Shown in pieces: positions 1 to 36,080 of a stretch of 40,436 bases of DNA. Made by a program: the position numbers and the translations under genes. Every line of letters starts with the position of its first letter. The stretch's first letter is position 1. This stretch comes from a virus (taxonomy: Duplodnaviria; Heunggongvirae; Uroviricota; Caudoviricetes): IMG/VR virus record IMGVR_UViG_2737471852_000004; one strand, 5' to 3'. Under the pieces are notes generated by a model, which was given only the letters and a program-made list of their open reading frames with translations, was not told where the DNA came from and did no database searches.

Positions 1-1248
1 ATGGCACTGAATATTCCATTCAGAAATGCGTACTATCGTTTTGCATCCAGTTACTCATTTCTCTTTTTTATTTCCTGGTCGCTGTGGTGGTCGTTATACG
101 CTATTTGGCTGAAAGGACATCTAGGGTTGACAGGGACGGAATTAGGTACACTTTATTCGGTCAACCAGTTTACCAGCATTCTATTTATGATGTTCTACGG
201 CATCGTTCAGGATAAACTCGGTCTGAAGAAACCGCTCATCTGGTGTATGAGTTTCATCCTGGTCTTGACCGGACCGTTTATGATTTACGTTTATGAACCG
301 TTACTGCAAAGCAATTTTTCTGTAGGTCTAATTCTGGGGGCGCTCTTTTTTGGCCTGGGGTATCTGGCGGGATGCGGTTTGCTTGACAGCTTCACCGAAA
401 AAATGGCGCGAAATTTTCATTTCGAATATGGAACAGCGCGCGCCTGGGGATCTTTTGGCTATGCTATTGGCGCGTTCTTTGCCGGCATATTTTTTAGTAT
501 CAGTCCCCATATCAACTTCTGGTTGGTCTCGCTATTTGGCGCTGTATTTATGATGATCAACATGTGTTTTAAAGATAAGGATCACCAGTGCGTAGCGGCG
601 GATGCGGGAGGGGTAAAAAAAGAGGATTTTATCGCAGTTTTCAAGGATCGAAACTTCTGGGTTTTCGTCATATTTATTGTGGGGACGTGGTCTTTCTATA
701 ACATTTTTGATCAACAACTTTTTCCTGTCTTTTATGCAGGTTTATTCGAATCACACGATGTAGGAACGCGCCTGTATGGTTATCTCAACTCATTCCAGGT
801 GGTACTCGAAGCGCTATGCATGGCGATTATTCCTTTCTTTGTGAATCGGGTAGGGCCAAAAAATGCATTACTTATCGGTGTTGTGATTATGGCGTTGCGT
901 ATCCTTTCCTGCGCGCTGTTCGTTAACCCCTGGATTATTTCATTAGTGAAGCTGTTACATGCCATTGAGGTTCCACTTTGTGTCATATCCGTCTTCAAAT
1001 ACAGCGTGGCAAACTTTGATAAGCGCCTGTCGTCGACGATCTTTCTGATTGGTTTTCAAATTGCCAGTTCGCTTGGGATTGTGCTGCTTTCAACGCCGAC
1101 TGGGATACTCTTTGACCACGCAGGCTACCAGACAGTTTTCTTCGCAATTTCGGGTATTGTCTGCCTGATGTTGCTATTTGGCATTTTCTTCCTGAGTAAA
1201 AAACGCGAGCAAATAGTTATGGAAACGCCTGTACCTTCAGCAATATAG
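1..1248 (+). CDS. MFS sugar:H+ symporter, LacY / oligosaccharide:H+ symporter family (host flank)
   Basis: 415-aa hydrophobic ORF; motifs FEYGTARAWGSFGYA, YNIFDQQ, GPKNALL, FKYSVANFD align with E. coli LacY as recalled. Confidence 0.85.
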   Translation: MALNIPFRNAYYRFASSYSFLFFISWSLWWSLYAIWLKGHLGLTGTELGTLYSVNQFTSILFMMFYGIVQDKLGLKKPLIWCMSFILVLTGPFMIYVYEPLLQSNFSVGLILGALFFGLGYLAGCGLLDSFTEKMARNFHFEYGTARAWGSFGYAIGAFFAGIFFSISPHINFWLVSLFGAVFMMINMCFKDKDHQCVAADAGGVKKEDFIAVFKDRNFWVFVIFIVGTWSFYNIFDQQLFPVFYAGLFESHDVGTRLYGYLNSFQVVLEALCMAIIPFFVNRVGPKNALLIGVVIMALRILSCALFVNPWIISLVKLLHAIEVPLCVISVFKYSVANFDKRLSSTIFLIGFQIASSLGIVLLSTPTGILFDHAGYQTVFFAISGIVCLMLLFGIFFLSKKREQIVMETPVPSAI

Positions 1249-1256
1249 ACGTAAAC

Positions 1257-1300
1257 TTTTCCGGTTGTTGTCGATATCTCCCTATCCCTCAACCGGAAAA
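1257..1300 (+). terminator. Hairpin immediately after MFS stop: 11-bp perfect inverted repeat (TTTTCCGGTTG / CAACCGGAAAA), 22-nt loop
   Basis: Inverted repeat read directly; loop is long and the downstream tract is A/T-rich rather than a clean U-run. Confidence 0.35.
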
Positions 1301-1772
1301 TAATAATACTAAAGTGCTTAGCCCTGCTAATAATCACCTAATCCAAACGCCTCATTCATGTTCTGGTACAGTCGCTCAAATGTACTTCAGATGCGCGGTT
1401 CGCTGATTTCCAGGACATTGTCGTCATTCAGCGACCTGTCCCGTGTATCACGGTCCTGCGAATTCATCAAGGAATGCATTGCGGAGTGAAGTATCGAGTC
1501 ACGCCATATTTCGCTATCAGGATTCTGTGTGATGGTTACATCGCCCGGCCCAGGGCTGTTTAGTCATCAGCGCTTTCTGACAGTGCTGAGATTTCAACCT
1601 GTTGCAGTAAAAATGAGTAGATATAGGGCATGCTGCCAAACCCATCTTTTACGGAGTGAAGGTAGATTTCGTTTGAAGGGTATCTGGTGTCCCCTGCAGA
1701 CATCTACTTGAAGCGGCAGGGGATTGATTGGAATGGTATTTTTTAGATGTGAGAAATATTTTACCCGCTATT

Positions 1773-1973
1773 TTACCCATTGGCGCGGCTTAAGAGCTTA
1801 TTTTTGAATTCACAATGGTCACGATATAACCATCTTGCTCGCCCGTGGATAACTTTGGCTTTAGGCAGGTCTCCGGACTTAATCCGGTCGTAGATGAAGG
1901 TTTTACCGAAGCCAGTATCGGCCATGATGAATTTCAAATCAACCAGTGAATCAGGCTGTAGTTCGTGTTGCAT
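1773..1973 (-). CDS. xis: Excisionase / AlpA-family DNA-binding protein
   Basis: 66 aa; HTH pattern ...MADTGFGKTFIYDRIKSGDLPKAKVIHGRARWLYRDHCEFK matches AlpA/Xis family; RBS GGAG 6 nt upstream of ATG at 1973; terminal gene of leftward operon. Confidence 0.7.
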   Translation of the reverse strand: MQHELQPDSLVDLKFIMADTGFGKTFIYDRIKSGDLPKAKVIHGRARWLYRDHCEFKNKLLSRANG

Positions 1974-2015
1974 GAGTGCTATCTCCGAATAGGGAATCGA
2001 ACCTGCAAATCAGGT

Positions 2016-2038
2016 AAAAAAACCGCCATCAGGCGGCT
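2016..2038 (-). terminator. Intrinsic terminator on minus strand (stem CCGCC/GGCGG, loop TGAT, U7 tract)
   Basis: Minus-strand RNA reads AAGCCGCC-TGAT-GGCGG-TTTTTTT; sits 40 nt after the 3' end of the 2080-2379 gene. Confidence 0.6.
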
Positions 2039-2079
2039 TGGTGTTCTTTCAGTTCTTCAATTCGAATGTTGGTTACGTC

Positions 2080-2379
2080 TTATTCGATACGCACTCCTGG
2101 TATTTCGCCTTTTGATATTGCTAAGTCATAAATTTGCGCAGCACTATACCCATCTCGCATCCATGAATCTAAGGCGCGAACAGCCTCGCTACGCTTTTTA
2201 TCTTCTCTCTCATTTTTGATATCAACGAGGACATCAACGCAATTAAGGCAAATGTGGATTTTGTCCTTACATTCGATCATGGCTGCTTTACTATGATTTC
2301 CGCCACACAGTGAGCATAAATCTTCAGGGTCTGGCTGGTATTTCTGTAACGTTAGAGGGTTGAATGTTGAACAGGCCAT
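2080..2379 (-). CDS. Hypothetical Cys-rich (zinc-ribbon-like) protein
   Basis: ORF with CSLCGG...CLNC Cys pairs; start placed at third Met (2379), which has GGAG 6 nt upstream. Confidence 0.5.
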   Translation of the reverse strand: MACSTFNPLTLQKYQPDPEDLCSLCGGNHSKAAMIECKDKIHICLNCVDVLVDIKNEREDKKRSEAVRALDSWMRDGYSAAQIYDLAISKGEIPGVRIE

Positions 2380-2390
2380 AATCATCTCCA

Positions 2391-2415
2391 TAAAACAAAA
2401 CTCGCCGTAGCGAGT
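2391..2415 (-). terminator. Candidate intrinsic terminator on minus strand (stem ACTCGC/GCGAGT, loop TACG, U-rich tail)
   Basis: Minus-strand RNA reads ACTCGC-TACG-GCGAGT-TTTGTTTT between the ASCH-like gene and the Cys-rich gene. Confidence 0.45.
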
Positions 2416-2450
2416 TCAGATAAAAGAAATCCCCGCGAGTGCGAGGATTG

Positions 2451-2735
2451 TTATTCATTGCTGATATTCACCTTTATCGCGAACACCTTTACCGGTTTAT
2501 CACCGAAGTGCGGATGTGTGATTGTCTTGATTTCATATCCACCATACGGAACATCAATTCTGCGACTGGAATCGTCGCGCTTCGGATATCCCTTTGTGAT
2601 AATCAGGCGGTCATACTCCCGGAACATAATTCGCTTATTCCAGTAGTCATTACACAGGCGATACTCTTCCGTTTTCTCTCCGCGAATCATGGCATCGAAG
2701 TATTCACCTTTGACAGCAAGCTGTAGGTTAGCCAC
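2451..2735 (-). CDS. ASCH-like domain protein (hypothetical)
   Basis: N-terminus LAVKGEYFDAMIRGEKTEEYR resembles the start of ASCH/PUA-like domains; GTG start at 2735 has GGAGG 6 nt upstream and overlaps the upstream stop. Confidence 0.45.
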   Translation of the reverse strand: MANLQLAVKGEYFDAMIRGEKTEEYRLCNDYWNKRIMFREYDRLIITKGYPKRDDSSRRIDVPYGGYEIKTITHPHFGDKPVKVFAIKVNISNE

Positions 2736-3336
2736 GGTTAACCTCCAGTTGTGGTGCTGCCTCAATAGCAGCCCTGTAACCAGCAGCATGACCGCGAAAG
2801 TTAGCAATCTCTGATAGCCACGCTTTAATCATGGCCTGAGTTGGTTCCTTCGGCACCATAACCCAACCATCCTGAGTTACCGGAGAGTTGCCATCCAGCG
2901 CGTTCAACTTGTAAGCCTGGCTTACAGGTTCGGCACTATGAAGCATGGCAGCGCGGCAGGCGTTCCAGCCATCAACATAATCAAACGTATTGCTATCGTC
3001 TGGCTCGATTTCATCCGGCACTACCGGCTCTGGTTGGATAGTGACGTTGGCAAAGGCAGCACGCAAACCGGCCTTAATTTCCTCTACTTCATCAGCGCCT
3101 AGCGATGAATCTGACAATGCGTGATGGAATGCGTAAGCCATGTCGTCGTTTACTGCAACCGGTTCTGCTTCCAGCGATGCCAGTGCAATCCGTACCAGTT
3201 CCAGTTCCCGTTCAACCATCTCAAGAACAACTTTGCAGTCCTCACCTTCTTTGCTGGCACGTCCTTTCAAGTCTTCCAGATAACTAACGCTTTCGCGTGC
3301 ATGGGATATTAACTGTTCTTTGGTAATAGTGGTCAT
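2728..3336 (-). CDS. Hypothetical phage early protein (acidic, 202 aa)
   Basis: Long ORF, translationally coupled to neighbours; no recognisable motif. Confidence 0.55.
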   Translation of the reverse strand: MTTITKEQLISHARESVSYLEDLKGRASKEGEDCKVVLEMVERELELVRIALASLEAEPVAVNDDMAYAFHHALSDSSLGADEVEEIKAGLRAAFANVTIQPEPVVPDEIEPDDSNTFDYVDGWNACRAAMLHSAEPVSQAYKLNALDGNSPVTQDGWVMVPKEPTQAMIKAWLSEIANFRGHAAGYRAAIEAAPQLEVNRG

Positions 3337-3338
3337 AG

Positions 3339-3530
3339 CTATTTCACTTTAATCTCAACATTTCGCAGCTTTAGCTCTACTGGCAGGTCTGACTTTCCTG
3401 TTAATGCTAATGCGAGATTTTCAGGAGTAATGAGAGCAGTTATTGTTTTCCCCATTGCCAGACGAATAATCATTCGTATCTCGCGATCGTCACATGCTCC
3501 CGGTCGAACAATTGATATTTGTCCATTCAT
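3339..3530 (-). CDS. Hypothetical small protein (63 aa)
   Basis: ATG at 3530 has AGGAG 7 nt upstream, 1 nt after the Ead stop; the longer track ORF (to 3572) would overlap Ead by 41 nt. Confidence 0.4.
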   Translation of the reverse strand: MNGQISIVRPGACDDREIRMIIRLAMGKTITALITPENLALALTGKSDLPVELKLRNVEIKVK

Positions 3531-3531
3531 C

Positions 3532-4134
3532 TCACTCTCCTTTGATGCGAATGCCAGCGGCGCGGATTGCATCGATGACTTCAGAAACTTTGTATGCCAT
3601 TACCGTTTGGTAATCATCGTGAAAATCTGTTCGATGAAGCATGCTGCTACGTTCCGGGAGCAGTATTTCCCGATCCTCCAGTTCTGCTATGCGCTTCTCT
3701 GCGGATTCCAGCTTCTCGCGCATATCGTCAACGTACTCGACCAGAGAACCGCCAGCAGGAATTTCGCACTCCTCGACCAGTTGGAAGTAGATATCAGCTG
3801 CGGCCCGTGTGTTGCTATGCCTAGCGTCGCCCATCTCACCTTCACGAAGAGCATCGCGTTCGGCGGTAAGATTGGCTATTTTGCTGTCTTTGCCTTCAAG
3901 CTCAACGCGCAGCTTCCCTACCGTTAGCGCAATTTCCTCGTTCTCCTGGTCGCGGGATTTGATGTATTGCTGGTTTCTTTCCCGTTCATCCAGTAGTGCA
4001 AGCACAATGTGTGGCGTTATTAAGGACTCAAATTCGGCAACAGCTTGCTCACCTCGCTTGTAATTATTAATCCCACCTAAATCTTTCGCGTTCTGCGCCG
4101 CCTCACGCAGTGCCTGATAGTCAATCTTGCTCAT
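3532..4134 (-). CDS. Ead/Ea22-like family protein
   Basis: N-terminus MSKIDYQALREAAQNA... and coiled-coil middle are typical of Ead/Ea22-like proteins of P22-like and lambdoid prophages (recalled). Confidence 0.7.
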   Translation of the reverse strand: MSKIDYQALREAAQNAKDLGGINNYKRGEQAVAEFESLITPHIVLALLDERERNQQYIKSRDQENEEIALTVGKLRVELEGKDSKIANLTAERDALREGEMGDARHSNTRAAADIYFQLVEECEIPAGGSLVEYVDDMREKLESAEKRIAELEDREILLPERSSMLHRTDFHDDYQTVMAYKVSEVIDAIRAAGIRIKGE

Positions 4135-4135
4135 G

Positions 4136-4435
4136 TCACACCACCCTGAATCCGTTGCATTTACGTAAAAAATCGCAGATATAGCCCTTCATTTTTTCGT
4201 GCCAATCTCGATCATTCCCATTGCACCAACCATCAGGTGGAGTCCAGTTTTCTATCAGAGCAGCCATTTTCTTTGCTTTCGCCGGAGTAGCTGTTGCGGT
4301 ATCGCAGTAATGACGAGTGTCAACCAACGCATCCATACCATCGATATCAAGTACGCAAAACCATGTGTGATTCGGAATTCCTACAGGTGGTATTTGTTGC
4401 CCACGTCGACGTTTATCAATAAGATATACACTCAC
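4136..4435 (-). CDS. Hypothetical protein (99 aa, Cys/Trp-rich)
   Basis: GTG start at 4435 has AAGGAGG 6 nt upstream and overlaps the upstream stop (GTGA); stop is 1 nt before the Ead ATG. Confidence 0.5.
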
Positions 4436-4599
4436 TGCTTGCCTCCTTTGCGCCACATCGCATTCAGATATTTGTTTTGATTTACTGACGGAAAAGAATT
4501 TCTCTTAAGCAATTCCTCTCTCGATGGCATTGGCTTTACGCGTTGGCGAATAATCATTTCTGCTGGAAGAATGCCGGGATTGTATGCAAGTCCTCTCAT
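4432..4599 (-). CDS. Hypothetical small protein (55 aa)
   Basis: ATG at 4599 has GAGG 8 nt upstream; alternative ATG at 4617 overlaps the upstream stop. Confidence 0.35.
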
Positions 4600-4609
4600 G
4601 GTAAATTCC

Positions 4610-4903
4610 TCAGTCATTACTGATAGCGCCATAGCGTGAGCGGTAATTACGCAGGCGCGGGTCAATTTCAGGGAAGTGGGTATATGTGGCTTTGCGGAAT
4701 GGTCGGATTGATGTCTGGTAAATTCGCTCGCGTTCTTTTTTCTCTGCAAGCCAGATACAATGGCGAAATTCCTTTTCCTCTTTCGTTTCCTGCGGTAGCG
4801 ACATTATCAGGTCGTAGTTTTTTCTGAATTTATCCAGCACCTCCAATACGGAATTGCCGGAACAGCGGCGCGCGTCGTCCGCACCATACAGAGGCGCTGG
4901 CAT
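4610..4903 (-). CDS. Hypothetical protein (97 aa)
   Basis: ATG at 4903 has AAGGA 7 nt upstream. Confidence 0.5.
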
Positions 4904-4926
4904 AATGGAATCCTTATTTTGCTAAT

Positions 4927-5310
4927 TTAGAAGGGAATTGAATCGTCGTATTCAGGATGATTTTGATGATTGCTACTTTGTTGCTGTTGGCTGTTTCCTG
5001 AAGTTGCAAATCCAATCTTTGCATTCAGTAATTCAAGAGTGATTGATTGACCATTTTGCCCCTGATAAGCATCAACCCTGATGTTTTCTCCGGTAATTTC
5101 AACAATGCCTCCTTCAACCAGAACGCTACGGTAGTAATCCGCTTGCGCTCCCGGCTTGGCAAATACAACGGCGCTGTAGTTTGTCCATTCTTTCTTTTTT
5201 GTCTGGCGATCGTAATACTGAACGCCAGCACGGATGTTGAATCCGATATTTTCCCCGGCCTGAAACTCTCTTGCGGGCTTGTTTAGTCTTACAGTAATCG
5301 AATGTGCCAT
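4927..5310 (-). CDS. Compact SSB-like protein with acidic C-terminal tip (...PEYDDSIPF)
   Basis: C-terminus matches the bacterial SSB tail D-D-D-I-P-F; OB-fold-like core; ATG overlaps the Erf stop (TAATG). Confidence 0.55.
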   Translation of the reverse strand: MAHSITVRLNKPAREFQAGENIGFNIRAGVQYYDRQTKKKEWTNYSAVVFAKPGAQADYYRSVLVEGGIVEITGENIRVDAYQGQNGQSITLELLNAKIGFATSGNSQQQQSSNHQNHPEYDDSIPF

Positions 5311-5915
5311 TAAGCAGCAGCTCCTTCTAATTCGTCTCGTCTGATGTTGTAAACGTCCTGCGCTTTGTGCTGCTCAGGTGTGCCTTCGAGCATCTTCCAC
5401 GCTTTGGCGAACGCCTGTTTAAGCTCTTCTACGGTGTTTTTCTGCATTGCTGCGTCAGTGAATGCTTTTAGAACCTGTTCAGGTGTAGGTGATGGTTTTG
5501 ATTGCTTTGCTGCTGCGTTCTGCTGATGTTTATGCTCGTCTGTATCTGCATCTTTCGCATCATCTATGCCGAACAAACCATTGAGGCAATACTTGCGCGC
5601 ATAAGAGCTTGTAGCTCCAGTAACTTGTGCAGAATCCATTCCTTTCTTGCTTTCTTCCTCTCGTGCAAGAGCAGTTGCCGTATGACTGTTTTCGCCATCG
5701 GTAATAGTTGCCGTGGCTTTCACGTAATACCGATCACCAATCAACACAACTTCATCGCTGATTGATAAAAACAGGCCATTCAGTAACGGCTTAACGCCTT
5801 CAAGAATGTCTTCGCAGCTTCTGTATTTATATTTACCGAATGAGTTGTACTGATTCTTTGGCGCGTTCAGATTCTCCTGAATAGCTGCCAGTCTTGCGTA
5901 AAATTCTTTGCTCAT
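5310..5915 (-). CDS. erf: Erf-family single-strand annealing recombinase
   Basis: MSKEFYARLAAIQENLNAPKNQYNSFGKYKYRSCEDILEGVKPLL... is near-identical to phage P22 Erf as recalled; start at Met 5915, not the upstream track start. Confidence 0.9.
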   Translation of the reverse strand: MSKEFYARLAAIQENLNAPKNQYNSFGKYKYRSCEDILEGVKPLLNGLFLSISDEVVLIGDRYYVKATATITDGENSHTATALAREEESKKGMDSAQVTGATSSYARKYCLNGLFGIDDAKDADTDEHKHQQNAAAKQSKPSPTPEQVLKAFTDAAMQKNTVEELKQAFAKAWKMLEGTPEQHKAQDVYNIRRDELEGAAA

Positions 5916-5925
5916 ATGATTGTTC

Positions 5926-6096
5926 TCAGAATGGACACGGCCCAAGGAAATAACGCTGATTTAATACTTCGACTCTGGACAAGTTAAGGCATACCCGCAT
6001 TCCTTCGCGGTCACCATTATGGCGATACCAGAGAGCTTTCTGCGTGTACATGCGTCTCTGTAACTTGCTCTCCTTCACTGTGGTTGCAAGTGACAT
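5926..6096 (-). CDS. Small ORF (56 aa) in the position of P22 arf
   Basis: ATG at 6096 has AAGGAG 6 nt upstream; assignment by position only; a competing 52-aa ORF (6017-6175) overlaps in another frame. Confidence 0.3.
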   Translation of the reverse strand: MSLATTVKESKLQRRMYTQKALWYRHNGDREGMRVCLNLSRVEVLNQRYFLGPCPF

Positions 6097-6171
6097 GAAT
6101 ATCTCCTTCGTTACCGATTAATTCTTTCATCTGACGAATGAATTCTTCGTCTGACCAGTTATCTGTAAAAC

Positions 6172-6324
6172 TCATTTCCTGCGATACCACGGAAGGTTGA
6201 TAGCTGATTTCATCGCTTTATTTGCTTCAAGCCACATTTTTGAATCACCAATAAATCTGGCTATTACTGCTTTGTTTTGTGCAGCACGAAGCATCTGGTG
6301 ATTGATGGCTATTTCATTGCGCAT
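6172..6324 (-). CDS. Small ORF (50 aa), possible Kil-like host-division inhibitor
   Basis: ATG at 6324 has GAGGT 6 nt upstream; between cIII-like and erf as kil is in P22; motif ARFIGDSKMW is only tentatively Kil-like. Confidence 0.35.
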   Translation of the reverse strand: MRNEIAINHQMLRAAQNKAVIARFIGDSKMWLEANKAMKSAINLPWYRRK

Positions 6325-6440
6325 AATAAGACCTCAACTCTTTTCCATCCGTCACGTAATTTACGGGTGATTCGTTCAAGTAAAGATTCATTTAGTTGGA
6401 AGGCACCCATGCGAGCGCCTCCCGCGATTGCGTAAATCAT
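6309..6440 (-). CDS. cIII: CIII-like protein (FtsH inhibitor / lysogeny promoter)
   Basis: 43 aa MIYAIAGGARMGAFQLNESLLERITRKLRDGWKR...; the ESLLERITRKLRDGWKR core matches lambda CIII as recalled; AAGGA RBS. Confidence 0.65.
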   Translation of the reverse strand: MIYAIAGGARMGAFQLNESLLERITRKLRDGWKRVEVLLCAMK

Positions 6441-6464
6441 GGGTGGTTCCTTATGTTGGTTTTA

Positions 6465-7433
6465 TTAGTAGATTATTTTTGTTGCGAATACTTCGCCTTT
6501 TACGATGGCTGTTATGATATTTTTAGCAACATCTTCTGATGCGCCAACCTTGATAAGGTCAGCAAGTATTTTGTTATTTACTTCTTTTCGGTGAGCTTTA
6601 TCCTTTGCTCTACGCTCTTCTTCGTCCTTGATTCTTTTTTCTTCTGCTATTCTGGCTTGCTCTTTTGCTTCAGCCTCGCGCCGGATTCGTTCAGCCTCCT
6701 CCTGTGCTTTTCGGCGTTCTGCTTCAATTGCCGCCTGCTTTTCTCTTTCAGCTTGTTCTGCTGCCTCTTTTGCTTCGCGCTGTGCTCGTTGCTCGGCTTC
6801 AATGCGTTCACGCTCTGCACGTTCCGCTGCGGCCTTAGCTTCTGCTTCTCGCCTTGCTGCTGCTTCAATTTCGGCTTTTGCCTTTGCTTCGGCTTCAGCT
6901 CTGGCTTTCTCTTCAGCTTCTCTTTGTAAGCGTTCTTCATGCTCTCGCTTTTCCTTCTCCGCTTTGAGTCTTGCCTCTTCTCTTTGGCGGTCAAATTCGC
7001 GATCCATCAAAATCGCTATTTCATGGTCAGACTCAATTTGCTTTGCGAGAGCTTCAGCTGCTGCCTTAGCTTCTTCTTCGGCTTTAATCCGCGCCTGTTC
7101 TTCCTCATAATCAGTAAGAGGCTGGCGTGCCTTGGCTTTCAGCTCATCAAGGCGATCACGCACTGTCTTGCGGTTGGCATCAATTAGCTTTGGAATTTCC
7201 TTCAGTTCAGCAACAAGGTCTTTGCCAAGACCATCGAGATATGTTTTCGTCTGCGCAACTTTATACGCCAGAGAAGCGATCTCCTTTCTGCCCTTTGCCG
7301 TTGTGATATCAGGCACAAAGGACATAACTTCACGTTCAACCTTTTGGAGAATTTCTTCAATCTGGTCGGCAGACTGAAATACAGTCATTGCATTTGCTTT
7401 TTCAATAACAACTAAATCTGTTACTTCACTCAT
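6465..7433 (-). CDS. Hypothetical coiled-coil protein with about 180-aa E/A/K/R-rich low-complexity repeat
   Basis: Start at Met 7433 with GGAGG RBS (track ORF extends to 7487); N-terminal globular part, long AEAKA/EAERR repeat, short C-terminal domain. Confidence 0.6.
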   Translation of the reverse strand: MSEVTDLVVIEKANAMTVFQSADQIEEILQKVEREVMSFVPDITTAKGRKEIASLAYKVAQTKTYLDGLGKDLVAELKEIPKLIDANRKTVRDRLDELKAKARQPLTDYEEEQARIKAEEEAKAAAEALAKQIESDHEIAILMDREFDRQREEARLKAEKEKREHEERLQREAEEKARAEAEAKAKAEIEAAARREAEAKAAAERAERERIEAEQRAQREAKEAAEQAEREKQAAIEAERRKAQEEAERIRREAEAKEQARIAEEKRIKDEEERRAKDKAHRKEVNNKILADLIKVGASEDVAKNIITAIVKGEVFATKIIY

Positions 7434-7608
7434 ATATCCTCCATCAAAAAAATCGCCCTCACATCGGAGGGCAAAGAAGATTTCCAATAATCAGAACAAG
7501 TCGGCTCCTGTTTAGTTACGAGCGACATTGCTCCGTGTATTCACTCGTTGGAATGAATACACAGTGCAGTGTTTATTCTGTTGTTTATGCTAAAAATAAA
7601 GGCCACCA

Positions 7609-7860
7609 TCAGGCAGCCTTGTTGTAAATGTTGCAGGTATCAAGTAAGTAATTAGATGGAGCGCCATAAATTATGAATTCATCGTTTGTCGGGTCCATCT
7701 CCATCTCTTGGCCTATTGCCATTCTTGCGTCAGTGTCATCAGCGGCGAAGCATAAAACAGCCCACGCACCCATTGTTTTAAAAAGAACTGCAATTGGCTG
7801 TGGTTTTACTGAATTTGCGTTAGCGCGAAAATCACAAATCGCACTTTCATGAAACTCCAT
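7609..7860 (-). CDS. Hypothetical protein (83 aa)
   Basis: ATG at 7860 has GAGGTG 4 nt upstream. Confidence 0.5.
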   Translation of the reverse strand: MEFHESAICDFRANANSVKPQPIAVLFKTMGAWAVLCFAADDTDARMAIGQEMEMDPTNDEFIIYGAPSNYLLDTCNIYNKAA

Positions 7861-7914
7861 ATATCACCTCAAATAAGTGGTTTGCTGCGAAAGTAAATAC
7901 GCTTAAGTTACCTG

Positions 7915-8052
7915 TTATTTATCCCACCAAGTTCCGTATTTATCTATCCAGTTACACCAATCATCGACACTCCATTTTGTTGTGTCGCATTTTGGCAATT
8001 GGCATGAATATCTACCTTCTTTGTAAAGTCGGCGTTTGACTTTCTTGAGCAT
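7915..8052 (-). CDS. Hypothetical small Cys/Trp-rich protein (45 aa)
   Basis: Below the ORF-track cutoff; ATG at 8052 has GAGGT 4 nt upstream; translation MLKKVKRRLYKEGRYSCQLPKCDTTKWSVDDWCNWIDKYGTWWDK. Confidence 0.35.
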   Translation of the reverse strand: MLKKVKRRLYKEGRYSCQLPKCDTTKWSVDDWCNWIDKYGTWWDK

Positions 8053-8170
8053 GACTACCTCAATCGTAATAAGCTGGAATTGATTTTCCGCGTTGCTTCT
8101 GGCGGCCTGAGCAGGTCACACCCATTTCACTGCGTGGCTTGCTGTAATAAATTCGGTTAGTTCAGACAAT

Positions 8171-8190
8171 AAAAAACCCACCGAAGTGGG
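8171..8190 (-). terminator. Intrinsic terminator on minus strand (stem CCCAC/GTGGG, loop TTCG, U7 tract)
   Basis: Minus-strand RNA reads CCCAC-TTCG-GTGGG-TTTTTTT directly after the stop of the 8191-8529 gene. Confidence 0.6.
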
Positions 8191-8529
8191 CTATGACCAT
8201 TTTTTATTTGGATTTCGTTGGTGAGCGTGATTAACAACTCTGTGCATTACATCCTCATATTTTTCATCTTCAATTTTTTCGACATCGCGAGGAAATGGTG
8301 TTGCTAATGCTTTGTCAACTTTATCCATTGGGTCTTCATTAATCTTATATTCAGGACCGTCATCTATAGCATTAAATCCAGGTGTTACACCGTTTTTTAA
8401 TGCATATGCTATCCTCTTTTCCCATCTCGCTATTCTCCTCCTGTCTCGAGATGTAAGACCTCTATCAGATACTTTTCTGTTTTGTCCGCGGTCAGGATTA
8501 ACATAAATAGTCTTTTTCACCATAAGCAT
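8191..8529 (-). CDS. Hypothetical basic protein (about 112 aa)
   Basis: ORF directly downstream of the N-like gene; start uncertain (ATG 8529 or 8523, or TTG 8535). Confidence 0.5.
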   Translation of the reverse strand: MLMVKKTIYVNPDRGQNRKVSDRGLTSRDRRRIARWEKRIAYALKNGVTPGFNAIDDGPEYKINEDPMDKVDKALATPFPRDVEKIEDEKYEDVMHRVVNHAHQRNPNKKWS

Positions 8530-8531
8530 AC

Positions 8532-8837
8532 TCAATAAGCACCGTACGGTAGTTTACCGTACAATTTTATTTTTTGGACTGCATGTATTTTGTTTCCTAA
8601 TGGGTTTGAATCTTTGTAATAAATACTTCTATTTTTTCGAACGACTTCTTCTTTCTTCTTGCAGCAAAGGATTCCTAGTGATGCTGCTTTGTCTGCTTTG
8701 ACGCAACCAGAGAGCTTTAGCGCAATTTTTCGCGCCAGTGCTTCATTACTGCGTCGCTCGGCAATAAGTTCTGCTCTGCGAGCTTTGTAGCGGCTTTTTG
8801 CCGTACCTTTGGATTCTTTCCAGACAATGGTTACCAT
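8532..8837 (-). CDS. N: N-like transcription antiterminator (arginine-rich motif), P22 gene 24 type
   Basis: First gene downstream of PL; N-terminus MVTIVWKESKGTAKSRYKARRAELIAERR is an arginine-rich motif; AAGGAG RBS at Met 8837. Confidence 0.55.
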   Translation of the reverse strand: MVTIVWKESKGTAKSRYKARRAELIAERRSNEALARKIALKLSGCVKADKAASLGILCCKKKEEVVRKNRSIYYKDSNPLGNKIHAVQKIKLYGKLPYGAY

Positions 8838-8947
8838 GATGGTCTCCTTTAAGTGGCTTTGGCGCATGACGCGTCGAGGTGCTTATCTTCTCGATCGCTG
8901 TCTTGCAGCTGCAATTCGCGCCATCCCCAAAACCACTCAAGTTCTGG

Positions 8948-8987
8948 TCTCAACGGTTAGGTTGAGAGTCCGTCGATGTTAAAGAGC
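8948..8987 (-). promoter_or_regulatory. Candidate nutL: boxA-like GCTCTTTAACA followed by a 7-bp-stem hairpin (boxB-like)
   Basis: Minus-strand RNA has GGCTCTTTAACA then TCTCAAC-CTAACC-GTTGAGA between PL and the N-like start. Confidence 0.4.
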
Positions 8988-9029
8988 CTGCCAATCTGTT
9001 CCGTTTGGCTTCCAGCGTCCTGCTGATGA

Positions 9030-9062
9030 CTTAAATTTAAGACTTCTTAATTTATTGGTCAA
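9030..9062 (-). promoter_or_regulatory. PL promoter (-35 TTGACC, 16-bp spacer, -10 TTAAAT) with overlapping repressor operator
   Basis: Hexamers read on minus strand; operator ATTTAAGACTTCTTAATT (9035-9052) has TTAAG half-sites of the P22-c2 type. Confidence 0.5.
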
Positions 9063-9130
9063 GTGCATTTTTGAAGAAAACTTAATTTTATGGGCGTGAA
9101 TTTAGTTTGTCTTTGATTTTTAACGGGAAA

Positions 9131-9153
9131 TAAAAAAGGGGCGAAAGCCCCTT
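9131..9153 (-). terminator. Intrinsic terminator at the 3' end of c2 (stem AAGGGGC/GCCCCTT, loop TTTC, U-tract)
   Basis: Minus-strand RNA reads AAGGGGC-TTTC-GCCCCTT-TTTTATTT, overlapping the c2 stop codon. Confidence 0.5.
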
Positions 9154-9802
9154 AAGGAAGGTTTGCTAGCTTGGCATCAACGACAACGCCAATGATTTTA
9201 CAGTTCCCATTGATTTCAATCATTGGGTATTGTGGATTGAGTGGTTTCAGGAATTTTCTACCGGCATCAATAACTAACTTTTTGAATGTCGCCTCGTTTT
9301 CTCCTTCAAGTTTGGCGACTACCAGCTTTCCATTACGTGGTTCGACTTCTGGGTCGACGAGAATAATCATCCCCTCAGGAATACTCAGTCCTGCCGGGGC
9401 AGTCATTGAGTCGCCTTTAACGTCGAGCCAAAAAGAGTCTTCAGAACAATCTACCGTTGTGTCGTACCAGTTATCTATTGCACGCCTATGATATGGCTCT
9501 ACAGCTTCCATCCAACATCCTGCGCTTACCCAACTAATTAGAGGATACGAACCTCTTGGATCATGCCTGCTGTGATAGGCAATGTTTGAAAGACTATCCT
9601 CTCCTTTCAACAGGTAATCAGGGGAGCACTGCAAAGCCTTGGCTAAGGCCAATAGGTTTTCGCCATTGGGCTCAGTTTCAGATCGCTCCCATTGGGAAAT
9701 AGCAACATTAGACACGCCAACCATCTTGCCAAGGGCAGCCTGCCTAATCTTGAGTTCTTTTCTGCGAGCGCGAATACGCTCACCCATCAGTTGTGTATTC
9801 AT
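9152..9802 (-). CDS. c2: Prophage repressor, P22 C2 type (HTH plus LexA-like S24 autopeptidase domain)
   Basis: 216 aa, MNTQLMGERIRARRKELKIRQAALGKMVGVSNVAISQWERSE...; near-identical to P22 c2 repressor as recalled. Confidence 0.95.
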   Translation of the reverse strand: MNTQLMGERIRARRKELKIRQAALGKMVGVSNVAISQWERSETEPNGENLLALAKALQCSPDYLLKGEDSLSNIAYHSRHDPRGSYPLISWVSAGCWMEAVEPYHRRAIDNWYDTTVDCSEDSFWLDVKGDSMTAPAGLSIPEGMIILVDPEVEPRNGKLVVAKLEGENEATFKKLVIDAGRKFLKPLNPQYPMIEINGNCKIIGVVVDAKLANLP

Positions 9803-10075: not shown

Positions 10076-10114
10076 GCTCTTTAACAGTTCTGGCCTTCAC
10101 CTCTAATCGGGTGA
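10076..10114 (+). promoter_or_regulatory. Candidate nutR: boxA-like GCTCTTTAACA plus hairpin TCACC-TCTAATCG-GGTGA
   Basis: Same boxA core as the nutL candidate, just downstream of the cro stop. Confidence 0.4.
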
Positions 10115-10182: not shown

Positions 10183-10479
10183 ATGGCACAAGCAAGCTAC
10201 AGCAAGCCAACACAGCGAGAAATTGATCGCGCTGAAACTGATTTACTCATCAACCTGTCAACGCTTACCCAGCGCGGTCTGGCAAAGATGATTGGCTGTC
10301 ATGAATCGAAGATAAGCAGAACGGACTGGAGATTTATTGCTTCGGTCTTGTGTGCTTTCGGAATGGCATCAGACATCAGTCCGATTAGCAGGGCTTTTAA
10401 GTATGCGCTTGATGAAATCACAAAGAAAAAATCCCCGGCTGCCACCGAGGATTTTAAGCAAATTGATATGCAATTCTGA
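10183..10479 (+). CDS. cII: CII-like transcriptional activator (P22 c1 equivalent)
   Basis: C-terminus ...KKKSPAATEDFKQIDMQF parallels lambda CII ...KKRPAATERSEQIQMEF; HTH region; located after cro. Confidence 0.8.
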   Translation: MAQASYSKPTQREIDRAETDLLINLSTLTQRGLAKMIGCHESKISRTDWRFIASVLCAFGMASDISPISRAFKYALDEITKKKSPAATEDFKQIDMQF

Positions 10480-12854: not shown

Positions 12855-12927
12855 CCATCTACATCACTGAGCTAATAACAGGCCTGCTGGTAATCGCAGG
12901 CCTTTTTATTTGGGGGAGAGGGAAGTC

Positions 12928-17042: not shown

Positions 17043-17072
17043 AGCCCTGAGTTAATAGCTCGGGGCTTTTTG
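17043..17072 (+). terminator. Intrinsic terminator about 35 nt downstream of PR' (9-bp stem with one G-U pair, loop TTAATA, U5)
   Basis: AGCCCTGAG-TTAATA-CTCGGGGCT-TTTTT read on plus strand. Confidence 0.55.
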
Positions 17073-18619: not shown

Positions 18620-18641
18620 GCCTCGCGATGCGGGGCTTTTT
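18620..18641 (+). terminator. Intrinsic terminator after the lysis cassette (stem GCCTCGC/GCGGGGC, U5)
   Basis: Hairpin plus TTTTT read directly 33 nt after the Rz stop. Confidence 0.5.
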
Positions 18642-36054: not shown

Positions 36055-36080
36055 AACCCGCCACCCGGCGGGTTTTTTGC
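36055..36080 (+). terminator. Intrinsic terminator after the membrane-protein gene (stem ACCCGCC/GGCGGGT, loop ACCC, U6)
   Basis: Perfect 7-bp GC stem then TTTTTT. Confidence 0.65.

Follow-up and report, generated by a model that had tools for sequence, protein, structure and literature searches.

Organization of the early-left region

The window analysed here is a stretch of 40,436 nucleotides of a Caudoviricetes virus (IMGVR_UViG_2737471852_000004), whose flank at 1..1248 corresponds to a host MFS sugar transporter. The region under study very probably represents the leftward early operon, transcribed from pL, of a P22-like prophage whose immunity and antitermination functions come as a phage 21 module. 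Its features are the following:

10076..10114, plus strand: nutR, past cro on the rightward transcript, with boxA GCTCTTTAACA and boxB (CUAAUC loop)
9152..9802, minus strand: prophage repressor of the P22 c2 / phage 21 cI type (Pfam HTH_3 and Peptidase_S24)
9128..9153, minus strand: repressor-transcript terminator (timm-like), hairpin 9153..9136, tail TTTTATTT, d 48.4, -12.1 kcal/mol
9027..9116, minus strand: OL1-OL3, pL and transcription start transferred from the phage 21 annotation (OL3 9116..9099; OL2 9087..9070; OL1 9052..9035; start about 9027)
8948..8987, minus strand: nutL, boxA GCTCTTTAACA at 8987..8977 and boxB hairpin at 8967..8948
8532..8837, minus strand: N antitermination protein of the phage 21 specificity class (PHROG 271, PDB 1NYB peptide)
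8191..8523, minus strand: nun, HK022-type Nun transcription termination/exclusion factor, directly after N
8165..8192, minus strand: T1, first terminator of the operon, hairpin 8192..8175, CCCACTTCGGTGGG + TTTTTTATT, d 34.6
7609..8052, minus strand: two-gene accessory cassette, a 45-aa DUF5484 protein (8052..7915) and an 83-aa PHROG 2471 protein (7860..7609)
7591..7620, minus strand: T2, hairpin 7620..7599, tail TATTTTTA, d 29.6, -13.9 kcal/mol, z -3.5
7475..7566, minus strand: non-coding T2-T3 block, conserved and structured (Sf6 'bsq4 boundary sequence')
7446..7474, minus strand: T3, homolog of lambda tL2a, hairpin 7474..7453, tail TTTTTTT, d 36.6, -12.9 kcal/mol
2451..7433, minus strand: terminator-free delayed-early core with Orf53-like, cIII, kil, erf, abc2, ead/Ea22-like and other genes
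2391..2449, minus strand: tandem terminators T4 (hairpin 2449..2428, d 27.2) and T5 (hairpin 2417..2398, tail TGTTTTAT, d 29.0), together -26.3 kcal/mol, z -5.8
2080..2379, minus strand: variable slot gene between T5 and T6, Sf6 gp19-like Cys4 protein (PHROG 3680)
2014..2039, minus strand: T6, last of the terminators, some 45 nt ahead of xis, hairpin 2039..2020, tail TTTT, d 44.4
1773..1973, minus strand: xis, HK620/Sf6 TorI-type excisionase (PHROG 66, Sf6 gene 18 homolog)

The xis gene is the last one before the att core at 1685..1699, which matches 15/16 of the Sf6 attP core. The gp19-like gene likely starts at 2379, behind a GGAG, and the genes of the core give Pfam matches to Lambda_CIII, Lambda_Kil, ERF, Anti-RecBCD_p2, Ead_Ea22 and DUF7739.

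Immunity region, nut sites and N

The immunity region is of the phage 21 type. The repressor is identical to P22 C2 at 202 of 216 positions and to the annotated phage 21 cI over all 190 residues, Cro is the same protein (61/61), and the DNA spanning OL, pL and nutL differs from the annotated phage 21 sequence at one position (228/229 identical). A consensus scan places a promoter-like TTGACC-17-TAAATT at 9062..9034 on the minus strand. The nutL site is identical to phage 21 boxA-L and nutL (transferred boxA-L 8987..8980, stem-loop 8967..8948), and RNA folding returns its boxB hairpin as predicted, with a 7-bp stem and a CUAACC loop. The nutR site is about 95% identical to the annotated boxA-R/nutR, from which boxA-R transfers to 10076..10083 and the stem-loop to 10097..10114; its boxB also folds and departs from phage 21 by a 1-nt spacer deletion and one C-to-T change in the loop, which reads CUAAUC here and CUAACC there. 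Both early transcripts carry a nut site with boxA and boxB between the promoter and the first terminator, and the intervals that the first-pass annotation had proposed for nutL (8948-8987) and nutR (10076-10114), both with boxA-like elements, coincide exactly with the transferred phage 21 annotation.

The first gene of this repressor-controlled operon, in which OL/pL (9116..9027) is followed by nutL, is N (8837..8532). An arginine-rich N-like protein had been suspected here; in support of this identity, residues 8-29 are the same (22/22) as the N peptide of phage 21 whose structure was solved together with boxB RNA (PDB 1NYB). The protein also matches PHROG 271 'anti-termination protein N-like' (4.5e-29), while its score against Pfam N_peptide is 18.4 bits, under the 27.9 cut-off. 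Two isolated phages, mEp235 and mEpX1, have N proteins 97% identical to it. With phage 21 N it shares only 75/102 residues overall and, unlike in phage 21, where ral follows, the next gene is nun.

The nun gene and its probable expression in the lysogen

Nun is identical to HK022 Nun at 109/110 residues, matches PDB 6ALG chain N (2.5e-71), PHROG 5632 (4.5e-71) and PDB 1HJI, and displays an arginine-rich motif and the C-terminal ...KKWS. The first-pass annotation had not recognized the open reading frame directly after N as nun. Of the 126 nt preceding the gene, 123 are the same in HK022. Although pL should be shut in the lysogen, nun is probably still transcribed there from a promoter of its own that lies within the 3' end of the N gene, a position suggested by this conservation together with what is reported for HK022; a consensus scan for the nun promoter found no sigma-70 consensus. 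Such a transcript would be out of N's reach because it starts downstream of nutL. Since T1 lies 1 nt past the nun stop codon, it probably ends the nun transcript too and, backed by T2 and T3, would keep it from reaching kil and the remaining early genes.

Genes distal to each terminator had been expected to be silent in the lysogen unless they had promoters of their own. This is a non sequitur, because the silence of the operon in the lysogen is due to repressor occupying OL/pL and not to the terminators.

Reportedly, Nun targets lambda nut sites and phage-21-type nut sites escape it. This lysogen should exclude phages carrying lambda nut sites through Nun, and its own phage-21-type sites should escape. 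As in this prophage, a full-length phage-21-type N precedes nun in 56/70 nun-bearing viral contigs. From this frequency, a place behind such an N may be the native context of nun; the HK022 arrangement would then be derived, with the 5' two-thirds of N replaced and a remnant left, and it would be common for prophages to combine an N specific for one boxB with a Nun targeting another.

Intrinsic terminators of the operon

Terminators were called by a consensus scan, a score d for hairpin and U-tract, and RNA folding. The score d, whose formula is reportedly that of d'Aubenton-Carafa 1990, was checked on lambda, where it recovers hairpins at the reported positions of tL2a, tL2b, tL3, tI, timm and the oop terminator. 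All three approaches agree on the minus-strand sites listed in the first-pass annotation (8171-8190, about 7591-7620, 2391-2415 and 2016-2038). Its estimate of at least four terminators stands, with six strong sites in total, T3 (7474..7453) and T4 (2449..2428) having been overlooked. The terminator that it placed after c2 is likewise real, folds and is identical to the one annotated after phage 21 cI; however, it lies upstream of pL and therefore outside the pL operon.

The sense strand of 1773..9030 holds six sites with d >= 25, as against none with d >= 0 on the antisense strand and 0.00 sites with d >= 25 in 40 dinucleotide-preserving shuffles of the sense strand. All six consist of a GC-rich hairpin with a canonical U-tract directly after the stem, and all are intergenic or overlap a stop codon. 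The same bias holds among relatives: 137 sense and 3 antisense strong sites were found downstream of nun (71 sequences, namely 70 loci and the window), and 105 sense and 1 antisense upstream of xis (37 loci). At least one strong terminator separates nun from cIII in 22/25 relatives with detectable cIII. The packed 5-kb core (7433..2451) contains no site with d >= 0 on either strand.

T1 is a short hairpin of 5-7 bp (-10.3 kcal/mol, z -2.7) that 51 of the nun-bearing loci share. About 9/70 relatives carry a degraded version, so it is not indispensable. One A-U pair is replaced by G-C in HK022 and in one further locus (L071); this compensatory pair is seen in 4 distinct variants, and several variants have broken outer pairs. 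The T2 hairpin, whose loop contains the stop codon of the 83-aa gene, is also present 3' of ral in Sf6 and, as a weakened copy, at the lambda ral stop, and in relatives its wobble pairs become Watson-Crick. The T3 stem is the same as that of lambda 33952-33931 and of phage 21; the Sf6 record labels it 'tL2A', and the phage 21 record likewise has an annotated terminator here. T4 is identical to lambda 29354-29337 and T5 differs from lambda 29321-29308 by one base. The hairpin of T6 (-13.0 kcal/mol, z -3.6) is identical in lambda (29125-29112), Sf6 and P22. The lambda counterparts of T4-T6 have already been predicted as t3-t5 (Bloch 2014; PMC4195576). Among relatives, the stems of T3-T6 barely vary.

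What the analysis shows directly is the features of the sequence, the bias to one strand and the homology with elements characterised elsewhere. The near-identity to phage 21 supports the core of the first-pass reading, namely N and nut sites on both early transcripts with terminators to be passed, and the system would most likely work as follows. Once repressor is lost, RNA polymerase would initiate at pL (about 9027) and transcribe nutL; N, the first product of pL, would bind the boxB hairpin through its arginine-rich motif and, together with host Nus factors at boxA, turn the polymerase terminator-resistant. The modified polymerase would then pass all six intrinsic terminators, first T1-T3, which separate nun from the cIII/kil/erf block, and then T4-T6, immediately ahead of xis. 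The recombination, kil/cIII and excision genes would therefore be reached by N-modified transcripts only, and the same N would serve the rightward operon by acting at nutR. For this prophage, how efficiently the terminators act, the need for N and the host factors NusA/B/E/G, and the activity of a nun promoter are inferred. After induction, kil, erf and xis should be expressed in an N-dependent manner. Lambda transcripts of genes beyond the predicted t2 terminator are lower, and levels measured by RT-qPCR drop after some of these sites although N is present (PMC4195576); therefore, read-through is not complete.

Termination, insulation and module joints

The position of T1 invites the explanation that the hairpins mainly insulate accessory genes expressed in the lysogen (nun and possibly other morons), keeping constitutive transcripts out of toxic early genes and leaving gating by N secondary. 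In addition to T1 lying immediately behind nun, this explanation fits the clustering of terminators in the two zones of variable accessory genes, with none inside the core block, and the one to three terminators that most relatives keep between nun and cIII. Nun is constitutive in HK022 lysogens according to the statement in PMC5386594 that cites King et al. 2000. Against it, a crude consensus scan found no promoter-like site in the gap from T1 to the 45-aa gene, which could serve the cassette, or before the gp19-like gene. Lambda, moreover, has T4-T6 in a zone where no lysogen-expressed gene is known. Insulation as the main role is possible but doubtful, and it is compatible with N-mediated antitermination rather than exclusive of it.

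The terminators are, on the sequence comparisons, also conserved joints between exchangeable accessory-gene cassettes. The two-gene cassette is found in a minority of nun-bearing relatives in varying combinations; in HK022, which lacks it, T1 adjoins the sequence that follows T2 here, and lambda and many relatives have a shorter slot in the same T5-T6 place. Flanks are unrelated on one or both sides in 10/25 contexts for T2, 38/54 for T4 and 46/61 for T5, and Sf6 annotates bsq2 over T6 and bsq4 over T3. The hairpin blocks might thus be primarily 'boundary sequences' for homologous recombination between modules, with termination incidental, and the T2-T3 block, almost invariant across 54 contexts, agrees with such a role. 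A pure linker, however, requires neither a GC hairpin with a U-tract nor a sense-only bias (137:3 and 105:1), and the compensatory pair in T1 and the wobble-to-Watson-Crick changes in T2 also weigh against it. Furthermore, lambda tL2a has reportedly been characterised experimentally as a terminator. We regard recombination as the primary role as quite improbable. The confinement of the hairpins to two accessory-gene zones and their recurrence at module joints illustrate the known mosaicism of lambdoid phages.

The T2-T3 region has a very high degree of structure. Across lambda, phage 21 and Sf6 the block keeps about 97% identity; it is shared by more than 50 further contexts and folds strongly (z -6.2), with extra hairpins that are not terminators: a 12-bp hairpin and a second hairpin precede that of tL2a, and two unrelated stem sequences alternate at one position. 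Beyond a terminator plus a recombination linker, the block may act as a common 3' UTR, as an element for processing or stability, or as a small RNA. This structure would favour the hairpins being chiefly 3' stabilisers or processing signals that generate stable mRNA ends from a long antiterminated transcript rather than polymerase stops, which is very improbable given the canonical U-tract directly 3' of the stem in all six. It also seems rather unlikely that the block is a functional RNA module and nun is native behind a phage-21-type N, taken together. Termination that N would relieve is the preferred reading of the six sites.

Relation to other lambdoid phages

The lambdoid leftward operon found here is real and follows a textbook pattern that is well understood. 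The gain is one of annotation, since the label of an imm21-type N/nut antitermination operon, complete with nun and lambda-family terminators, can be given with confidence, and the result has little significance beyond this correct labelling.

Lambda shares the tL2a stem of T3, the whole 180-nt ral-to-tL2a block at about 97% identity, and the order of T4-T6 and their distance to xis. Unlike the window, it has neither nun nor T1, its T2 equivalent is weakened, its T5-T6 slot gene is different, it carries tL2b, tL3 and t2, which are absent here, and it has its own N/boxB specificity.

The accessory genes resemble morons in being terminator-bounded and variably present among relatives. Morons are defined as promoter-gene-terminator insertions in the passage of PMC4104026 that cites Juhala et al. 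2000; nun apart, the cassettes differ from them in that the crude scan detected no promoter of their own.

HK022 resembles the window in Nun (99%), in the sequence upstream of it and in the terminator hairpin at the same spot after its stop codon, with the one compensatory pair. In contrast to the full-length N present here, it retains only the last 40 or so codons of N; no intact N was found in HK022, and the records of its relatives HK75 and O276 show a putL antiterminator RNA at this place. Since the T1 and T3 elements also occur in HK022 without an intact N, they are generic barriers and not N-specific.

A similar organization is seen in the annotated P22-like and lambdoid genomes Sf6, HK620 and mEp235, which share gene order, xis type, att core and T2, T3 ('tL2A'), T4, T5 and T6. 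Their accessory genes between the terminators differ, a case of ordinary mosaicism, and mEp235 carries the same c2-N-nun block.

Prophage context and gene order

The six terminators T1 to T6, numbered from N toward xis, belong to the early-left operon of a prophage, which is read from the minus strand between pL and xis at the prophage end. A gene for an MFS sugar transporter of the host occupies the first positions of the window (1..1248), with a match running through it in many E. coli chromosomes, and from about 1685 on the sequence is that of a P22-like/lambdoid prophage, mosaic with phiv205-1, CUS-3, HK633, Sf6 and mEp235. The att core at 1685..1699, which shares 15/16 bases with the Sf6 attP core, is only the 3' remnant, and int must lie at the opposite prophage end, outside the window. 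ARAGORN found no tRNA genes in the whole window. In the gap between T6 and xis, TGCAGGTTCGATTCC at 1993..2007 (minus strand) resembles a tRNA T-arm of the GGTTCGAATCC type and may be what is left of an older attachment site.

The minus-strand gene order begins with N, nun, a 45-aa DUF5484 gene and an 83-aa gene, continues with an Orf53-like gene, cIII, kil and two small ORFs, then erf, a 127-aa gene and abc2, followed by DUF7739 and Ead/Ea22-like genes and a PHROG 625 gene, and ends with a gp19-like Cys4 gene and xis. The ATG listed for the gp19-like gene (2379..2391, minus strand) overlaps the T5 U-tract; GGAG followed by an ATG at 2379 is a better fit to the 99-residue PHROG 3680 profile, and the gene probably starts there.

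Immunity region and nut sites

Residues 8-29 of N are identical (22/22) to the phage 21 N peptide of the boxB RNA complex (PDB 1NYB); the protein shows 97% identity to N from the isolated phages mEp235 and mEpX1 and shares 75/102 residues with phage 21 N. The DNA spanning the c2 terminator, OL, pL and nutL agrees at 228 of 229 positions with phage 21, in whose record OL1-3, the start of pL, boxA-L and the stem-loop of nutL are all annotated. Likewise, the nutR region shows ~95% identity to boxA-R/nutR as annotated in phage 21, a single C in the loop being changed to T, Cro is identical to phage 21 Cro (61/61), and the repressor equals phage 21 cI across its annotated 190 residues and P22 C2 at 202/216. 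Taken together, these matches of the N motif, OL/pL/nutL, nutR, Cro and repressor assign the prophage, by homology, to imm21 with the N/nut specificity of phage 21. With the phage 21 annotation as reference, the nut coordinates proposed in the first-pass annotation (nutL 8948-8987, nutR 10076-10114) proved to be exact. The motif GCTCTTTAACA matches the rrn-type boxA consensus. The text of that consensus was not found in PMC2800207.

Detection of the terminators

An initial permissive scan was dropped, as it allowed long floppy hairpins and returned dozens of sites on both strands. It was replaced by a score, d, that considers compact hairpins and combines hairpin density (energy per nucleotide) with a weighted U-tract. 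The formula is reportedly that of d'Aubenton-Carafa et al. 1990; d was used as a heuristic and the weight was put on controls.

Minus-strand terminator sites and their d scores
8190..8177, minus strand, T1, d 34.6
7618..7601, minus strand, T2, d 29.6
7474..7453, minus strand, T3, d 36.6
2447..2430, minus strand, T4, d 27.2
2414..2401, minus strand, T5, d 29.0
2036..2023, minus strand, T6, d 44.4
9151..9138, minus strand, terminator after c2, d 48.4
10451..10432, minus strand, site inside the cII-like gene, d 46.8

Between 1773 and 9030, the sense strand contains six sites with d of at least 25 and the antisense strand none with d of at least 0, and 40 dinucleotide-preserving shuffles gave on average 0.00 sites at the former threshold and 0.42 at the latter. 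As a positive control, the scorer recovered lambda hairpins at the positions of tL2a, tL2b, tL3, tI, timm and the oop terminator. The minimum-energy fold is the hairpin itself in each case (z-scores of folding energy from -2.6 to -5.8). Each of the six lies between genes or overlaps a stop codon, and none (0/6) falls in the packed gene block 7433..2451. The five sites named in the first-pass annotation were all recovered by a consensus scan, which also lists many weak plus-strand sites and, in addition, 7474..7453 and 2449..2428; the count of the first-pass annotation was slightly low, as it had left these two out. It had also listed the terminator after c2. This element, identical to the one after cI in phage 21, lies upstream of pL and thus ends the repressor transcript, outside the operon.

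Counterparts and variation in related phages

The T3 stem is that of the lambda 33952-33931 hairpin, and all of the 180 nt between T2 and T3 share ~97% identity with the ral-to-tL2a segment of lambda, and likewise with phage 21 and Sf6. The T3 equivalent is annotated as 'tL2A' in Sf6 and as a terminator in phage 21. A literature search on tL2/tL3 gave no relevant result. T4, T5 and T6 correspond to lambda hairpins at 29354-29337, 29321-29308 and 29125-29112, already predicted as t3, t4 and t5 of the exo-xis region in a study where transcript levels were lower for genes past the predicted t2 terminator (Bloch et al. 2014, PMC4195576). Sf6 and P22 have T6 as well. In P22 (23398-23418) the annotation reads this hairpin from the other strand, where it ends the rightward aI (anti-int) RNA; the plus-strand version of the window hairpin (2023..2036) has a poor T-tract.

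The comparison set comprised 70 viral contigs encoding Nun, 49 of which carry the same repressor as the window. Gene content downstream of nun is highly variable, with strong terminators placed 137 times in sense and 3 in antisense (70 loci and the window); upstream of xis the figures are 105 and 1 (37 loci). The T4-T5-slot-T6 arrays of these xis loci differ in slot length, and some include one more cassette that carries a terminator of its own. Compared with HK022, the window carries an insertion, made up of the 45-aa/83-aa cassette and T2, that separates T1 from the conserved block. Both flanks differ from those of the window in 10/25 contexts for T2, 38/54 for T4 and 46/61 for T5, the only informative counts, as those for T1 and T6 are biased by choosing loci through nun and xis. 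T1 shows one compensatory pair, A-U to G-C, and is degraded in ~9 loci. The hairpins may serve first as insulators, as recombination linkers of the kind called 'boundary sequences' in Sf6, or as 3' stabilisers of transcripts; the insulator and linker roles are both compatible with termination of pL transcripts. Both the canonical U-tracts and the extreme bias toward one strand speak for termination as the selected property of the hairpins.

Nun and its probable transcript

The ORF directly 3' of N (8523..8191, minus strand) is identical to HK022 Nun at 109/110 residues, and its product matches PDB 6ALG chain N (2.5e-71) and PHROG 5632, 'Nun-like transcription termination factor'. The same gene is annotated in mEp235, in the same N-nun tandem. 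Judged by these homologies, the prophage encodes both an N antiterminator with the specificity of phage 21 and Nun, the terminator/exclusion factor. A literature search on mEp235 and Nun gave no relevant result, and PADLOC returned no defence-system match for nun or the cassette proteins. A full-length phage-21-type N lies directly upstream of nun in 56/70 contigs. HK022 (~3090..3218, against window 8524..8650) has only the last ~40 codons of such an N directly before nun, its homology to the window stops upstream of this remnant, and its arrangement is a minority among nun contigs; HK75 and O276 annotate the stretch of the HK022-type remnant as putL. From the sequence comparison, the HK022 arrangement looks derived from an N-nun ancestor.

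The 126 nt before nun, inside the N 3' end, are conserved with HK022 (123/126 identical). The abstract of King et al. 2000 is reported to place the promoter just upstream of nun and to note that its transcripts should end downstream of nun; by eye, no convincing -35/-10 pair was seen in the 180 nt before nun. T1 begins 1 nt past the nun stop, a position that, with the conserved DNA before nun, makes it the first barrier to pL transcripts and probably also the site where constitutive transcription of nun ends. At 8544..8562, within the last codons of N, a perfect palindromic hairpin of 8 bp, kept in HK022, has a terminator-like look on the plus strand, where AATTTTATTTTT follows directly; on the sense strand it would fall in the nun leader.

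The specificity of Nun for lambda boxB was reportedly described by Robert et al. 1987. The phage-21-type boxB, with its hexaloop CUAACC, is unlike the lambda boxB that Nun recognises, and the prophage's own transcripts should therefore escape Nun. Binding of Nun to lambda boxB leads to transcription arrest on lambda (PMC5386594; PMC4496710), and for Nun levels in HK022 lysogens a passage of PMC5386594 gives King et al. as the source.

Predicted regulation of the operon

The sequence itself shows the repressor and its operators, pL with nutL, the N and nun genes, six terminators on the sense strand and nutR, as well as their homology to characterised elements. Following the lambda/21 paradigm, derepression would allow N to bind boxB, N together with Nus factors at boxA would render the polymerase resistant to T1-T6, and the cIII/kil/erf/abc block and xis would be expressed only from N-modified transcripts, in line with the antitermination that the first-pass annotation had proposed for 1773-8837. 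Its further suggestion that the terminators keep distal genes silent in the lysogen calls for correction, silence being due to the repressor at OL; there, the terminators matter only where transcription starts inside the operon, as it probably does for nun. The nun transcript would start downstream of nutL and so could not be N-modified, and T1-T3 would halt it in the lysogen. The host MFS sugar-transporter gene (plus strand) adjoins the prophage end (1..1700). Since this interval has no strong minus-strand terminator past xis, N-modified pL transcripts would exit the prophage antisense to the host gene.

The structured block between T2 and T3

By sequence comparison, every component is 93-100% identical to described elements of phage 21, HK022, lambda, Sf6 or mEp235. 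The operon logic is textbook and already known, and the sole mildly unexplained item is a non-coding block in the T2-T3 gap (7475..7566, minus strand) with a strong fold (z = -6.2). It is almost invariant across 54 contexts, and lambda, phage 21 and Sf6 ('bsq4') share it with more than 50 others. On its upstream side it borders on a T2-type terminator or, elsewhere, on the stop codons of various genes. Eight sequences, from a few phages, carry an unrelated hairpin of 11 bp where the block otherwise has its first hairpin, of 12 bp, and HK022 has IS903 inside the block. An identity with the EHEC anti-sRNAs AgvB/AsxR was rejected, as those sit downstream of PR' in the late region; Pas sRNAs, also considered, lie near late and structural genes too. 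Rfam gave nothing at gathering thresholds in the whole window and only chance-level matches in a permissive search. One of these, to the Salmonella prophage sRNA isrK (2016..2090, minus strand; 19.9 bits against a cut-off of 50, E 0.8), spans the 3' end of the gp19-like gene and T6 and is probably mere terminator similarity.

Terminators outside the leftward operon

The strong minus-strand site at 10428..10455 (d 46.8), in the 3' end of the cII/c1-like gene, lies where lambda and P22 have the terminator of the oop antisense RNA, and P22 annotates both the oop terminator and its promoter. Strong plus-strand terminators at 12881..12902, 17044..17066, 18620..18636 and 36057..36072, in the rightward and late operons, fit with N acting at nutR too. 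The first of them comes after the helicase gene, and a rho-independent terminator is annotated at this place in mEp235.
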